Source of the DNA: a bacterium
Lineage (GTDB): Bacteria > Hydrothermota > 32-111
DNA length: 46,474 nt
Reading direction: 5' to 3'
Assembly (NCBI GenBank): GCA_050239825.1
Contig: JBFXGO010000016.1
Location: 1 to 46,474, forward strand
Below are positions 33,801 through 46,474 of this stretch, piece after piece (position 1 is the first letter of the stretch; each line of letters begins with the position of its first letter). Position numbers: made by a program.

Positions 33801-36800
33801 ATATCAATGAGATACAGCAAAGAGATGCCGATATATTGTTCGCAGGAGACCAAGAGAGAGATAATGAATATCTACTCGTATGTTTTCAGGGAGACTCAGG
33901 AGGGCGGAGGCAAACCGAAATTTGTTTTTCATGATATAGAAAATATAAATAATCTTGGTCCGTTCAAAGTGAAATCATTCAAGGTCTATCATGGAAAGAT
34001 GAAGATTGACGCATTCATAATAGATAAACTCGCAGTAGTGATGGATGCCTCTTACATTGGGAGAGAGGAGAGAGAGCTTATAAAGGATAATGCTGAGAGT
34101 ATAATAATCAACGGACTGAGGATGAGGCCTCACACAACTCATTTTTCAATATCCGAATCAGCATGCCTTATAAGAGCCCTCGGAATGAAGAGGGGATATA
34201 TACTGCATCTTTCGCATGACCTAAAACAAGAGGATCTCGAAAAAATTCTTCCCGAAAAAGTTTTTGCGGGATATGACGGAATGGAATTTGACGCATGACT
34301 GATTTTAAAGTTGTTTCACGATACTCTCCTGCCGGAGATCAGCCAAAGGCGATTGAAGAACTTTACAGAGGCATTGAGGAGAAAAAAAAGTATCAGGTGC
34401 TTCTCGGAATAACAGGTTCCGGAAAGACATACACGATGGCAAAAGTCATTGAGAGAGCCAATTTGCCGGTGCTGATACTCTCACACAACAAGACTCTTGC
34501 CGCTCAGCTTTACGGGGAGCTTAAATCTCTCTTCCCTCACAATGCAGTCGAATACTTTGTCTCATACTATGACTATTATCAGCCGGAGGCATACCTTCCC
34601 GCAAAGGATGTGTACATTGAGAAAGAGGCGACTATAAATGAATACATAGACAAAATGCGCCTTAGAGCGACTGCATCTTTATATGAAAGGGATGATGTTA
34701 TTATAGTCTCGTCAGTCTCATCAATATATACTTTGGGCTCTCCGGAGGATTATAACAATACAATTTTCAGCATAAGAAGAGGCAATTCATTGAGTCAGGA
34801 AAAGCTGATTGACAATCTCATTATGATGCAGTATGAGAGAAATGACATTGATTTCAAAAGGGCGAGATTCAGGGTTATGGGAGACACTATTGATATTTTC
34901 CCTTCTCATCTCGACTCTCCTGTGAAAGTGCAGTTCTTTGGCGATGAGATTGAGGAATTATTCGTGTTTGACGAATTGAATAATTCAAAAATAGAGGATA
35001 AAGAGGTTGTGTCAATGTTTCCCGCAAAGCATTTCATGTCAGGAGATGAAAAAATAAAAAGAGCCGTTGTCTCTATAAGAGAGGAACTGAAGGAGAGGGT
35101 AACTGAACTCAGGGGAATGGGGAAGATGCTTGAAGCTGAACGCCTGAATTCAAGAACCAACTATGACCTTGAGATGATGAAAGAGGTGGGATACTGCTCC
35201 GGAATTGAAAATTATTCCAGACATATTGACGGACGCGCTGAAGGGCAGAGGCCATATACTCTTGTAGATTATTTTAGAGGAGATTTTCTCACAGTAATAG
35301 ATGAATCGCATGTGACAATACCGCAGATAAGGGGAATGTACAATGGAGACAGAGCGAGAAAAATGAATCTTGTGGATTACGGATTCCGCTTGAAATCTGC
35401 TCTTGACAACAGACCTTTGAAACTGAATGAATTTGAAACAATAACCAAATCTATTGTCTGCATGTCCGCCACTCCTGAAGCGTATGAAATTGACAGGTCC
35501 GACGGCAAGGTTACTGAGATGATAATCCGGCCTACAGGTCTTATAGACCCTGAGGTCGTAATAAAGAAATCAGAAAACCAGATTGATGACCTTATGAATG
35601 AGATAAAAAATGTTGTGGATAGGGAGGAGAGGGTTCTGGTCACAACTCTGACAAAGAGGATGGCTGAATCCCTGACCGACTATCTGAAGCAGAGGAATTT
35701 CAGAGTCAAGTATATGCATTCGGATATCGATTCGATTGAGAGAGTTTCAATAATCAGGGGGCTCAGGCTCAAGGAATTTGATGTTCTTGTCGGGATAAAT
35801 CTTTTAAGAGAGGGGCTTGACCTTCCGGAGGTCTCTCTTGTGGCTATCCTTGATGCAGACAAAGAAGGTTTTTTAAGGAGCGAGACATCTCTTATCCAGA
35901 CAATAGGAAGAGCTTCGAGAAATGTGAGGGGAAGGGTCATTCTTTATGCGGACAAGATGACAAAATCCATCGATAAAGCAGTCTCTACGACAAACAAAAG
36001 AAGGGAATCCCAGATGAAGTATAATGAACTTATGGGGATCACTCCAAAGTCCATTTCAAGGTCTATTGAGGATATACTCGTTTTGACTGATGTAGCATCA
36101 AATGCGGATGTTGAGGAGGAAATAGAGACAAAGACAGAATCGATGTCAAACATAGAGAGGATGGAGCTTTTGGATTCTCTCACAAAGAAGATGCACGAGC
36201 TGTCCGCAGAGCTAGAATTTGAAAAAGCGGCCGAGGTGAGAGATATGATAAGAAAGGTAAGGAAAGAGATTAAGGATAATTGAGAAAAGTTAAAACTGCT
36301 ATCTTAGCCTAATATAATCTTGACCCGAAAAGAGCATTGTAGTATGATTATTATAATCAGGAGGCAGGATGAAGAGACTTTTGACATTGTTTCTTGTGAT
36401 TGGAGTAGTAGAGATGTATGGCCAGACAATAGAGGGTGAACTACAAACAGAGACACAGGCAGAGACAGATACAATACAGCAAGCAGATACGATTACTCTA
36501 CCCGATACTATTGATGTTGAAAAAAAACTACAAACCAGCGATTTTGAATTAACAGAAGATAGTTCAATAATAAAACAAAATGAAAATGACGAATTGAAAA
36601 GAAAAAATAACGAAATATATTGTTGTTGTATGCTTGATTGGAGAGGGTTTCAGAAAAGACAGAATCAAGATTCTTCAGCATATAGCATCGGATATACTTT
36701 GAATGTTTATCCCAGAGTATTTTATTCATTGTACGACGGTCGAACATTCTTAGGGGCGGATCAAGACGGATACCTTTTTGCAGGCAATCCATTTTGCTTG

Positions 36801-39800
36801 TTTCATAAGATTGAAGTAAGTCATAACATGAATCTATTAAATAAAATACTATTTAAAATAGGATATAATTATGAGTATTCAAATTCAATTGATAAAGTAG
36901 CAGATGTATATGTGAAATCATCTAATTTAGAATATTCCTTGCGTTATTATAACGGATTGAACCTATTTACATTTCATTCTTTGGGTATAAATATGTATAA
37001 AGAATTCGGCTGTTTTAGAATGGGATTGTCTAATGGGATTACATATATGAAACAAGAGTTTTATGCAGTATATTTAAGTGATGACGAGTGGTATGATATT
37101 GATGTAAATAGGTTTCATTATCAAATCGGTATGAATGCAGGAATTAATTATACAGTATCAAATCATGTGACACTCAATTTTGGTATGGAGTATAAAAAGT
37201 ATTTTCAAATGGCATCTTACGTGAACTACCCAAACATAATTTATGATGTAAGTAAGATAAATCCAGGAATGGTTATGCATTATATAACACTAACCTTCAA
37301 TTTTTAGGAGAAAATATGAAAAAGGTATTATTCTACATATTCATACTTTACTCTACTAACTTGTTTTCAACTCCAATAATATTCATAACAGGAATTAAAT
37401 CTGAGGGTGTGGACACAATGGGATTCCTAACATGGAATGATATCAAAAAAGAGAATCCGGACGATCCAATTTATTACTCTTGCATGCATCAAGCAGTCGG
37501 TTATAAAGGATATCAATTATCTCCAGTGTTAGATTGTAATAAATATGTTGTTTTACCTTCTGGATTAGATGAAAACACGATGTTCAATTTTTCATATTAT
37601 GATACTTCAAGTTCAATACCTGGATTAATTTCAATTTCTGCTGATAGTATTAAAGTAGGATTCAAGATATTTAATTACATTAATGCTTTGGGAGCAGAAG
37701 TTTGTGATACGATTGCTTTCCCTCCGTTTTTAAAACAGTTTAAAGACGATGAATTTGACTATTTTGAATACTTTCCCAAATATATAGATGAATTTAGGTC
37801 GTATTCAATTATAATTAATGGAGAATTAATAGCTGGCTATAAAGTGACGCAAGAGTCTAAAGTATATAGACAATATTGGCGCACCAACCGCTATGCAGAG
37901 CATTTATGTAAATTTATAGATAAAGTATTAGCAGCCACTGGTGCGAGTAAAGTTAATCTTGTGTGTCATTCAATGGGTGGATTGGTTGCAAGGGCGGCTC
38001 TAATTGGATATGGATATTCGTCAAAAGTATATAAAATAATAACCGTAGGAACACCGCATCAATCACTGGAAGGTGATGCTGGAGAGTTGTTTTATAGATT
38101 ATTTGAAGTACCAAATGAATGGCAGAGATCAGGAGAGTTGATGGAGTTAGATGTTGAATATGATTATACCTATGGTGATATTGAATTTTATGATTTAGAA
38201 ACAGGTGTCGTTACGAATTTCGCTGATATGCTTGGTTACGATGTGAGTCCAACAAAGATTGTTTGCATTTCAGGCGATAGGAATGCTGGAGTTGGAGGAA
38301 CATTATACTCCAATGAATCAAATGACGGATTTATTTTTAATAGCATCTCAAAACTTTCTCCAAACAGTCTTGCAGATTATAATCCGATTATATATGCAAG
38401 TCATTCCATGTCTGGAGATATAGGAAGTTTCGGGAATTTAGGACAATCTGAATTATCATTAACTCACTGCACTTATGTAACAGAATTCATAAAAAAATGG
38501 CTTATAGATGATACCATAATTGAATTTACTGGAACTGCTGAGGATTTAGATGCTAAATTTTATGTGGTTAACGATGAGGAAGGCAATAAAACTTCTCGTT
38601 CAGTTAGAGTTCAAATTGAAAATAACGGAACATCCAATATTAATTATGGGGATTTTTTGTCGTTATTAGCTTATCCCATAGAGAAAATTGTAATAAGTGG
38701 TGATACCAATGAGAAAAGCCCATATGTTGGAATATCATTATCTAATGCGTATAACAATAATAGAATTATAGGTAATCCGATGGGAAGTCCAATCTTTATG
38801 ATGAATTGTGAATATAATAACACTACTTTTGATTTAACAGATGAATATCGCTCTGCAATTTATTTATATGATATGAAAGGACTAATAACCACTGATAAAA
38901 TTTACAATTATGCTCCTTTCGACAACTGGGTGAATGCTGAAGCACCGTATGTTAAGTTGCTGCCAAGCGCAACAGTTTTAACAGTGTTTACAGCTCTAAA
39001 CACATACACTATCGACTGGGAATCAAATGATATAGCTGTAAGGAATAGACTGTGGTATATAAGAGCTGGAAGTATAGAGATAATAGACAGCATGATACCC
39101 GGTTCAGCAATGAGTAAGAGTTTTAGGATACCGCCACTCAGGAGCAGTAAATCACACGGAATACCGGAGTATAATTTAATGAATATGTATCTTCGTTTTG
39201 AACTTGATGACAACGGCTATTTTTGCGAAGACAATAAATGGATAACAGTCAGTACGCCCGACTGGAACCCAGATAGTTTAAAATTAGTATATCAGGATGA
39301 GGATTCAATAAAAGTGAAATGGACAGACAGCTATAATTTAGTTGACAGAATAATAAGGTCAAACGACAACATGCAAAGGGATGTTTCTCCATTAAATACA
39401 TATACGGATACGAACTTTATAAGGGGTATGAATAACAACTATGAGGTACATTCGAGATGGGTATATCCGAACGGGGATATACTAATAAGCGAGAATGACA
39501 ATAACACACATAGAGAAACAGTGTTTGGAATACCGTGCAATGCTCCCAAAGCATATCCGATAGCTTGTATTTGGCAGCCAAACAATAAGGCATTGATAAA
39601 GTGGGTTGATAATTCAAGAAAAAGTGCTAATATGGGATTATATAATCAGGAGGCAGGATGAAGAGACTTTTGACACTGATTCTTGTGATTGGAGTATTGG
39701 GGCTATACGGACAGACAACAGAGGGTGAACTACAGATAGAAGCTGATACAACACAAAATGAAGATACAATAATTAAAGTCGATACTATTGGTGCTGAGAA

Positions 39801-45800: not shown

Positions 45801-46474
45801 TAGTTAACAGAATAATAAGGTCAAATGACGATATGCAAAGGGATGTTTGTTCATTAAATACATATACGGATACGAACTTTATAAGGGGTATGAATAACAA
45901 CTATGAGGTACATTCGAGATGGGTATATCCGAACGGGGATATACTAATAAGCGAGAATGATAATAACACACATAGAGAAACAGTGTTTGGAATACCGTGC
46001 AATGCTCCCAAAGCATATCCGATAGCTTGTATTTGGCAGCCAAACAATAAGGCATTGATAAAGTGGGTTGATAATTCAAATCATGAGGATGGATATAGGA
46101 TAAAGATAAAGGAAAACGATACACTTAAAGGAACAAAGGATACAATAATAAATTTAGCGGAGGATCCTGACACATTGGAATGGATACATCAAACAACGAG
46201 AACAGGGCAAATGAAGTATATTGTATATTCAATGAATAAAGGAGCATTTTCAAAAGATTCTGTTGAATATATCAATTATAGAGGATACGGGACACCGTTT
46301 GTATCATTAGATAGTATTGACCTAAGCAAAGGAACCGTAAGAATAACAGGGGATACAATAATAACGGGAACGAGGAGAAGACTGAATGGAGATATACTTT
46401 CAGTAGAATCATATAAAGAAGGAGTTGAAAATAAGATTCTAAAATCCGAATTTGTAAAAGATAGTAATGCACAG

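Follow-up and report, generated by a model that had tools for sequence, protein, structure and literature searches.

Retention of barrel proteins beside broken lipases in WOR-3 bacteria suggests a reversed toxin-immunity system with its protective protein in the outer membrane

The window analysed here is the whole of a 46,474-nucleotide stretch, contig C29 (JBFXGO010000016.1), of an uncultured WOR-3 bacterium. Between positions 36369 and 46474 it carries, all on the forward strand, a partner gene followed by a lipase gene, three times in tandem. Reading of the ORFs gives the order B1-L1-B2-L2-B3-L3, which bears out the three barrel-lipase units of a preliminary description of this DNA. A sigma-70-like site upstream of the array on the same strand (36320-36348, 10/12) is a consensus match alone. 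B1 (36369-37307) has a signal peptide, an acidic linker, a CCC cluster and a barrel domain of the B3 family. L1 (37316-39661, 781 aa) possesses a signal peptide, a full alpha/beta-hydrolase head (CHSMGG, NDG, ASH) and a neck, and ends at a junction, without a body or T9SS signal. B2 (39658-40668) has the leader and N-terminus seen in B1 and B3. L2 is frameshifted, as was stated previously for g00985/986: its first frame, L2a (40678-41901, 407 aa), contains a signal peptide and the full head (AHSMGG) and stops at the frameshift near 41900, and its second (41912-42877) contains the neck and ends at the junction point of L1. A metagenome contig of run X1, possibly from the same sample, covers the frameshift region (41116-42788) with zero differences. 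B3 (42874-43824) has a CC pair in its N-tail and is predicted to form an outer-membrane beta-barrel of eight strands, the outer hairpins of which are long. In L3 (43826-46474) alignment places the catalytic residues at Ser225, Asp335 and His358. This gene (g00988) does not stop at the junction but extends into the carrier body and, as already noted, leaves the contig, being open at 46474.

The first two lipases had been described as ending at an identical junction and the third as continuing, and this is what the sequence contains: L1 and L2 exit the lipase frame at one point, after the codons W-[VI]-D-N-S, and pass into the barrel leader that they have in common, whereas L3 continues in frame. 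Shared segments of about 300-700 bp with 84-85% identity had also been described. Copy 1 of the neck repeat (38923-39617) is indeed 84.2% identical over 701 bp to copy 3 (45379-46079), which is in frame with the body; in the final 200 bp 199 positions match, and the longest identical run, 118 bp, ends at the junction. The shorter segment (39539-39839 and 42755-43055) is 85.4% identical over 301 bp, but just 79 bp of it, a repeat preceding the second junction, are lipase tail (42755-42833 and 46001-46079, 89.9%), and the remainder is barrel leader and N-terminus. Each junction bears a promoter-like site for the barrel that follows. At the first (39606-39633) the -35 hexamer lies within the lipase W-V-D codons and an extended -10 within the barrel leader; the second (42822-42849) scores 10/12, also with an extended -10. 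Individual sites are consensus matches, and in the whole region they are in modest excess (68, as compared with 54.5 +/- 6.2 in shuffles). The sole informative count is the leader census, in which the -35 hexamer is found ahead of 7 of 7 barrel leaders and at 22 of 1905 background sites. The best-matching sequencing runs are landfill and wastewater metagenomes, and there are no RNA data sets among the matching runs listed. Contigs of another study (run X4) carry an L1-type unit across L1's junction. When metagenome contigs, which drop rare variants, were aligned to the region, the joints listed did not include one that connects the neck of L1 with the body of L3.

The lipase head is a PGAP1-like alpha/beta hydrolase with an HSMGG nucleophile elbow. 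Its motif had been given as GHSMGG, which must be corrected to CHSMGG or AHSMGG in the window. The Ser, Asp and His columns are invariant in all 13 aligned lipase rows. The predicted structure has a pLDDT of 60, and fold matches cover only the core of about 80 residues, outside which the prediction is poor. In the carrier a Sec signal is followed by a lipase-type head of ~550 aa, which varies between copies, and by a body of 1400 aa, which is constant and terminates with a type A T9SS signal. L3's own tail lies beyond the contig end and the T9SS signal is read from full-length relatives, where, in agreement with the preliminary description, TIGR04183 scores 25.6 bits (cut-off 23) and PF18962 is matched as well; signal peptides were judged by eye. 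With an N-terminal signal peptide and a C-terminal Por_Secre_tail, these relatives fit type A cargo. Matching body ends with the T9SS signal sit at contig ends C7:2-616 and C18:61320-60706. SprA_N and PorV score above cut-off in this genome (G000), and a C25-CTD protein is encoded in the window.

Comparison of full-length copies from genomes G012 and G013 reveals heads that are 30-54% identical and bodies that are mostly 80-98% identical, with a like trend in a second body class. Over aa 1-500 the full-length lipase of G012 agrees with L1 at 487 of the 549 sorted sites, in bins of our own choosing; near aa 535-650, where the 701-bp repeat has its 5' edge, it changes to an L3-like sequence. Judged from sequence, a natural exchange of heads has taken place in the G012 gene at this edge. 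The array on G012:C63 has the like architecture that had been attributed to it (barrel-150 aa-barrel-154 aa-barrel-1981 aa), followed by PorV. The breaks in the lipases differ in place and in kind, and programmed frameshifting or readthrough was therefore rejected as their cause.

The barrels had been described as 8-stranded and best matched by OmpA, Ail and OmpX. The assignment as an 8-stranded barrel holds for B3 from its model and for B1 by homology, but for B2 there is only a low-confidence Atlas model. The B3 model (pLDDT 88.7) has eight long, amphipathic, antiparallel strands, with a signal peptide and a C-terminal aromatic strand, as is characteristic of 8-stranded outer-membrane beta-barrels. 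It matches OmpX (Foldseek E 1.8e-5) and, by VIA-align, the Thermus outer-membrane protein 3dzm (Z 14.5), OprF (Z 14.0), NspA (Z 13.5), OmpW (Z 13.1) and AlkL (Z 10.4). The barrel domain of B1 is 88% identical to that of the protein paired with the full-length lipase of G012. B2 has only its first ~85 aa in common with B1 and B3, and hhalign detects no homology of its C-domain to their barrel (probability 0.55%); the Atlas model (pLDDT 0.52) resembles OMP beta-barrels, which this domain probably also is. A full-length G013 lipase was said to have no adjacent barrel of the B3 type. That is true, but directly upstream of it lies a partner with a lipobox, belonging to a third family, and such a partner also precedes a related lipase stub on C18. 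The B2-type and lipobox-type partners show no homology to the B3 family by hhalign, and the same slot upstream of a lipase is thus filled by three mutually unrelated families. B1, B2 and B3 have no Pfam match at E<=0.01, a word-indexed search with the barrel alignment returned 6 proteins, and CC or CCC cysteine clusters are present in many partner N-tails. Among 33 aligned barrels no column is invariant, which disfavours an enzymatic, PagL/PagP-like role. The outer loops look type-specific. In 3 pairs with lipases at least 85% identical, a threshold picked after viewing and applied over 101-125 aligned lipase residues, conservation is higher in the predicted loops (229/253) than outside them (283/366); this is not so in 390 of 429 other pairs. 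The G016b/G103a pair is a counter-example, with conserved loops though its lipase match is only 65%.

That barrel type follows lipase type had been reported for 15 pairs from 7 genomes, and the relationship persists in 37 units from 18 genomes, which are not independent of each other (rho 0.476). None of 5000 permutations reaches this value, also when permuted within genomes, and the nearest neighbours by partner and by lipase agree in 23 of the 37 units. Decay is one-sided: 28 of 41 lipase copies that lie behind a partner are broken, as against 2 of 56 partner matches. Point lesions affect 11 genes, of which ten are lipase heads, for near-equal sequence lengths examined (p=0.007). In two other multi-copy cargo families of G000, tblastn gives one stop in all the rows listed. 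Estimates of dN/dS do not separate orphan partners (0.14-0.44) from lipase stubs (0.05-0.41). The upstream orphan cassettes of the preliminary description are stacked as claimed, but many of their lipases are stubs of 90-155 aa or in-frame fusions without the catalytic serine, and most arrays therefore read better as accumulated, putative immunity genes left from past replacements. Cassettes of partner plus head have been exchanged between loci and lineages, and partners have been retained after lipase loss.

In 41 units the partner gene comes first and the head occupies the N-terminus of the lipase. The lipase is present in 10 of 19 class genomes, G000 included, where 9 had been counted, and its homologues, put earlier at only 7 and distant, number 83 cluster representatives at E<=1e-30, with a best E<1e-50 in 24 of 272 phylum genomes. 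Many phylum genomes are without the system in this lipase-based survey, barrels not having been searched separately. In G000 the further units or remnants on C3, C18, C41, C50 and C56 were all located again. G103:C40 carries 5 intact barrels, 4 of them fused in frame to lipase stubs; tandem barrels number 3 in G009 and 2 in G044. No barrel precedes the intact lipases of G232 and G236, which carry a T9SS-type tail. Partners 80-85% identical are common to different families. Pattern scans of genome and metagenome collections gave, among the matches listed, mostly generic hydrolases sharing just the elbow. Arrays are often located at contig ends. The end of a Y1-transposase element truncates lipases on C56 and C3 and adjoins a remnant in G013; the element occurs at non-lipase sites too and was therefore rejected as a dedicated switch.

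We propose, with a probability of about 0.6, that these loci are an inverted polymorphic toxin-immunity system, in which a surface-acting lipase would be paired with a cognate inhibitor in the outer membrane. The mirror image of Rhs/CDI loci that had been suggested is supported, and extended, by the variable head and constant body, the natural head swap, the co-variation within genomes and the occurrence across the phylum. Immunity fits the partners better than anchoring does, because they survive lipase loss, co-vary with the head and not with the secretion signal, and have promoter-like sites of their own. The carrier would be exported by a SprA/PorV-type system and then displayed at the surface or shed. 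Its head would attack nearby and probably related cells from the outside, deacylating lipid A or phospholipid in their outer leaflet. The barrel, seated in the outer membrane of the producer, would use its outer loops to bind and block the cognate head. With secretion depending on a C-terminal signal, an incoming cassette would have to insert between old head and body, presumably by crossover in the barrel leader or neck repeat, so that the newest head would come last and older partners would accumulate upstream, each behind a junction promoter. The full proposal is more tentative, and we place it a little short of an even chance: the 8-stranded barrels would be outward-facing, allele-specific inhibitors, the T9SS-displayed lipase would attack the outer leaflet of rivals by contact and without entry, and the C-terminal signal would force the mirror-image logic, in which each recombination junction would also provide a promoter through which old immunity genes stay expressed.

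Several observations sit uneasily with an inverted toxin-immunity system. Co-variation is also expected from co-inheritance, the G232 and G236 lipases are intact without a barrel, and dN/dS does not distinguish partners from stubs. The queries used did not detect GldN or GldM in G000, and the GldN control query matched nowhere. All of the heads are lipases, lacking the enzymatic diversity of classical polymorphic toxins. L1 and L2a retain a signal peptide and the full triad without a T9SS signal; they should therefore reach the periplasm, where outward loops could not protect, and the proposal consequently needs the head to be harmless there.

Another reading, which we consider unlikely, makes the barrel a private chaperone, shuttle or surface anchor of its lipase, comparable to PorP/SprF or the lipase-specific foldases, with the lipase a nutrient enzyme and the arrays recombination debris. 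Side-by-side cognate pairs of cargo and barrel are established in T9SS (PMC12618676, in part), the closest solved structures of the head are Burkholderia-type lipases, one of them complexed with its foldase (2es4), and the cysteine clusters of the N-tails recall the twin cysteines of PorG/SprF (PMC12635249, in part). However, the signal is of type A and PorV is present; shuttles, as far as these sources describe them, recognise the CTD and sit downstream, whereas here the partners follow the head and the body is constant. A helper without a client should decay, yet 54 of the 56 partner matches are intact, and the G232 and G236 lipases do without a barrel. A distinctly smaller probability attaches to the idea that the barrel, like OmpW or AlkL, serves as a channel or receptor through which the products of the lipase are taken up; non-producers would keep it in order to exploit the lipases of neighbours. 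OmpW and AlkL are among the fold matches, the landfill and wastewater origin of the best-matching runs would suit this reading, and cheating would likewise leave broken enzymes beside intact barrels. Barrels of the OmpA/NspA/TtoA type nevertheless score equally or higher, no residue is invariant, and the tracking of the lipase together with type-specific loops suits protein-protein recognition better than small-molecule uptake.

The barrel might instead be the toxin's receptor or a kin-recognition tag, with resistance conferred by a non-targeted allele and not by inhibition. Resistance to BSAP-1 reportedly arises in this way, by replacement with a resistant allele. BSAP-1 targets a specific outer-membrane beta-barrel (PMC12853789, in part), and the loops here are type-specific in appearance; up to five different intact barrels stacked in one array would, as receptors, add susceptibilities, and absence of the system from many phylum genomes in the lipase-based survey argues against a core receptor locus. 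We regard this as very improbable. Least probable of all, and already largely refuted, is the view that an accessory operon of two genes was duplicated in tandem and decayed neutrally, helped by the Y1 element and by assembly collapse at repeats. The lipases truncated by that element and the frequency of arrays at contig ends are in its favour, but the element is also at non-lipase sites, the heads within one array are only 34-46% identical to each other and so are not recent duplicates, decay affects lipases and not partners, the two other multi-copy cargo families show the single stop noted above, and the L1-type unit crosses L1's junction in the contigs of a run from another study (X4).

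If the inverted toxin-immunity system is real, it would supply a rule for finding weapons that are secreted C-terminally (by T9SS), add immunity proteins of a class that acts at the cell surface, assign a function to orphan small barrels and be the first conflict system for WOR-3 that our literature searches turned up. Searches built on a C-terminal toxin with downstream immunity would miss such loci. The matched and mismatched head-barrel pairs within one array allow a direct test. Like the preliminary description, we found no published account of the system in a literature made up mostly of non-subscription papers, with supplements, notably that of PMC3482391, outside its scope.

B3 has the 8-stranded fold of OmpA, OmpX, Ail, NspA and OmpW, but its identity to them is 6-14%, its outer hairpins are far longer, its first loop is helical and its N-tail is long and acidic. 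The T6SS lipase effectors Tle4 and TplE pair with Tli immunity proteins, which are periplasmic lipoproteins. The present heads, likened to them without direct sequence comparison to Tle4, are also PGAP1-like alpha/beta hydrolases with an HSMGG elbow and tandem partner paralogues; unlike them, they have Sec and T9SS-type signals, C/A-HSMGG and a membrane-barrel partner, and the signal peptide and CTD point to a predicted delivery route other than T6SS. Type B T9SS cargo and PorP/SprF likewise form specific pairs of adjoining cargo and outer-membrane barrel genes (PMC12618676, in part), with a type B CTD and the shuttle gene directly downstream, whereas here the signal is of type A and the partner is upstream, 8-stranded and tracks the N-terminal head rather than the CTD. 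The TANFOR toxins of Bacteroidetes are also large, Sec-exported polymorphic proteins tied to T9SS, but, in the sections of PMC7073777 that describe them, the toxin is C-terminal, immunity is downstream and their status as T9SS substrates is only hypothesised, while here the carrier itself bears a type A signal. Rhs, CdiA and MafB systems are defined by C-terminal toxins, with toxin then immunity as the predominant order (PMC3482391, PMC4436062, both in part). The WOR-3 loci share with these systems a constant trafficking body, a variable enzymatic tip with an adjacent cognate partner, and cassette arrays with a homologous recombination segment and strings of retained partners. In them the trafficking part is constant, the enzymatic domains vary (all being lipases), extra cassettes are exchangeable and a co-varying partner outlasts the putative toxin. 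The tip is N-terminal, however, the partner, an integral outer-membrane barrel, and the cassettes lie upstream, the signal is C-terminal, and a C-terminal toxin domain with a downstream immunity gene was not found. With its N-terminal head and upstream partner, the system would therefore be a variant working like a polymorphic toxin system rather than a member of that class.

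At the end of the window, 3' of uvrB, lie six tightly packed genes on one strand, with a GC content of 29-37% versus about 40%. They form three units, each made up of a partner of 312-336 aa (B1, 36369-37307; B2, 39658-40668; B3, 42874-43824) and an alpha/beta hydrolase (L1, 37316-39661; the frameshifted L2, 40678-41901 and 41912-42877; L3, 43826-46474). The hydrolases match PGAP1/Lipase_2, and a Pfam search of the three window partners returned no match. The elbow motif, given as GHSMGG in the preliminary description, actually reads C/A-HSMGG. The head is the variable N-terminal part of the lipase, and all 13 heads that were aligned keep the Ser, the Asp (NDG) and the His. 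L1 (781 aa) and L2, in its second frame, quit the lipase sequence at an identical point, just behind W-[VI]-D-N-S, where a common leader of the next partner follows, while L3 reads past this point, just as had been described. The reported repeats are also present (38923-39617 with 45379-46079, 701 bp; 39539-39839 with 42755-43055, 301 bp), except that just 79 bp of the shorter one is lipase sequence.

The junction is not an assembly artefact, because a run X4 contig, which belongs to another study, includes an L1-type unit spanning it (39548-39666), and because in another genome (G013:C105) a barrel follows the closing ~30 codons of a neck, the repeat region behind the head, with the same junction. 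In run X1 the summed contig depth over window positions 45382-46113 is about 70 versus about 20 in unique parts, and the run also holds divergent L1- and L2-like contigs, so the assembly does not show all the neck copies or strains that exist. Elsewhere the window encodes a bacterial alpha-2-macroglobulin, a periplasmic protease trap (2111-7594), and surface polysaccharide genes (11246-18822 and 30818-33543), namely a cluster of Wzm/Wzt, RmlD and glycosyltransferase genes and, separately, a Wzi-like gene next to one that resembles a flippase gene.

The domain model of B3 (pLDDT 88.7) has eight long strands and resembles, at 6-14% identity, barrels of the OmpX, Ail, OmpA/OprF, NspA and OmpW types. 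B1 belongs to the B3 family. Neither the B2 domain, whose low-confidence Atlas model is similar to outer-membrane barrels, nor a lipobox-bearing partner family (C18 and C64 of this genome, G012, G013) has detectable homology to that family, so one slot is filled by three unrelated families; B1, B2 and B3 share a leader. An alignment of 33 barrels has zero invariant columns. Many partners, though not every one, have clusters of vicinal CC or CCC 10-25 residues ahead of the first strand (36621-36629 and 43126-43131 in the window). Intact barrel-type partners also stand without an adjoining lipase (C19:10934-10137, amid short, mobile-looking genes; C64:18744-17331; L033:9945-11485), and in G049 (C31) one barrel is an in-frame fusion behind an FN3-like segment similar to the WxDNS region of the neck (L080:6091-7386).

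The full-length relatives, 1938-1981 aa long, have a type A T9SS signal at their C-terminus. This genome has two body ends, each at the edge of a contig; both are 91% identical to the G012 body, and one is followed, as in G012, by a PorV gene. SprA_N and PorV score above cut-offs here, and a profile built in this analysis finds a CTD-like C-terminal segment in 67 ORFs. GldN and GldM gave no match in this genome with the queries used, and the GldN control likewise matched nowhere. With a C25 peptidase bearing a T9SS signal as PorU-like candidate (20828-23950), the WOR-3 T9SS may be a reduced version. Four other CTD-type cargo proteins (C12:16770-20477, C30:14349-10729, C11:3401-1, C31:42268-45685) are 24-30% identical to the carrier over its C-terminal half; their N-terminal domains are unrelated, they lack a barrel partner, and a ~620-aa cargo paralogue often comes after them.

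Compared between G012 and G013, the carrier shows 30-54% identity over its first 500 aa and 80-98% over the body from aa 700 on, apart from one bin at 53%. The G012 full-length gene groups with L1 up to about aa 535 and thereafter with L3, and the switch coincides with the 5' boundary of the 701-bp repeat; this mosaic is the product that a neck crossover would be expected to leave. Over their final 200 bp the necks of L1 and L3 agree at 199 of 200 positions, indicating that sequence next to the junction was exchanged recently. In several samples lipase genes are broken by a Y1-transposase element that has a hairpin end (C56:143 and C3:77358; L032:105-1085; X4 loose end 44177); the element is present at other sites too.

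Of 272 phylum genomes, an alignment search matched 43 at E<=1e-8, and in 24 of these the match reached E<1e-50; loci were inspected in all nine other class genomes with matches and in 16 of the remaining 33, covering some of the matches per genome. G103:C40 carries a barrel, four in-frame fusions of lipase signal, 100-140-aa stub and barrel, and last a lipase interrupted by a stop codon; a single stub/barrel fusion of this kind is present in G106. Barrels are tandem in G009 (three) and G044 (two), and intact lipases in G232 and G236 have no upstream barrel. A divergent subfamily in G051 (L091:6618-8941, L092:6327-8747) has a ~200-aa barrel-like gene downstream instead of upstream. The head may also occur outside WOR-3, since cluster P0046 holds a 3110-4055-aa relative that its source labels Elusimicrobiota.

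The co-variation claimed earlier between partner and downstream lipase holds over 37 units from 18 genomes (Spearman 0.476, reached in 0 of 5000 permutations, whether free, within-family or within-genome), and nearest neighbours are concordant in 23 of the 37; co-inheritance alone also predicts such tracking. A hand-curated census of breaks, from a six-frame scan in which stops were translated as X, was confined to loci outside the divergent subfamily (G051, G240), the partnerless genomes (G232, G236) and those with upstream sequence not visible or the 5' end missing (G227, G268, G009:C151, G013:C107). The census counted 41 lipase starts that follow a partner, from 20 genomes; of these, 7 are complete, 6 unbroken to the contig end and 28 truncated, frameshifted or stopped; broken partner hits number 2 of 56. 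When just point lesions in the head are counted, lipases make up 10 of the 11 affected genes (binomial p=0.007, for units that are not independent), with 11,538 versus 10,977 residues surveyed. dN/dS did not separate orphan partners from lipase stubs. That the arrays are neutral debris is the least probable of the readings considered.

The main rival, although itself unlikely, is that the partner is a private shuttle or foldase for the lipase. T9SS shuttle pairs are genuine, according to PMC12618676, and the twin cysteines of the partners recall PorG/SprF as portrayed in PMC12635249; the known pairs, however, recognise a type B signal and lie downstream, and retention of a client-less helper would be unexpected. 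Product uptake with cheating is improbable, and a role of the partners as receptor alleles somewhat more so. In the three pairs with lipases at least 85% identical, predicted outer loops are identical at 229 of 253 positions versus 283 of 366 elsewhere, a post hoc comparison; in the remaining pairs the loops are less conserved than the rest of the barrel (mean 15% versus 23%). All loop limits were drawn from one model.

We favor the partner as an outer-membrane inhibitor of the lipase; the lipase's substrate, its toxicity and its inhibition by the barrel are parts of the scheme that we infer. Long outer loops would make sense if the enzyme attacks from outside. Tolerance of the tail-less, catalytically complete heads of L1 and the first L2 frame suggests that the target is not periplasmic, and it can also be read to mean that the heads are harmless. 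Crossover in the neck or in the barrel leader would bring in new cassettes, and the last unit would be the live one. Earlier partners would be kept behind their own promoters, and earlier heads would erode to stubs or become the signal peptide of the next barrel. A -35 hexamer stands 16-17 nt ahead of a -10-like element in 7 of 7 window-type leaders (this genome, G012, G013) versus 22 of 1905 background sites, supplied by at least three different upstream sequences; microhomology at this hexamer could equally be the origin of the junctions. L1 is a possible reserve, because a 6456-bp neck-to-neck deletion would rejoin it to the body; among the joints listed for contigs aligned to the region, none has this structure.

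Our literature search, of main texts, returned no report of this barrel-lipase system. PMC3482391 explains the order of toxin and immunity genes by 3'-tip recombination, in which an incoming pair leaves the earlier immunity genes behind as a string. Here the logic must run in reverse, because the secretion signal is C-terminal, and the array, as read from its sequence, displays this reversal. The system differs from classical polymorphic toxins in polarity but behaves like one of them.
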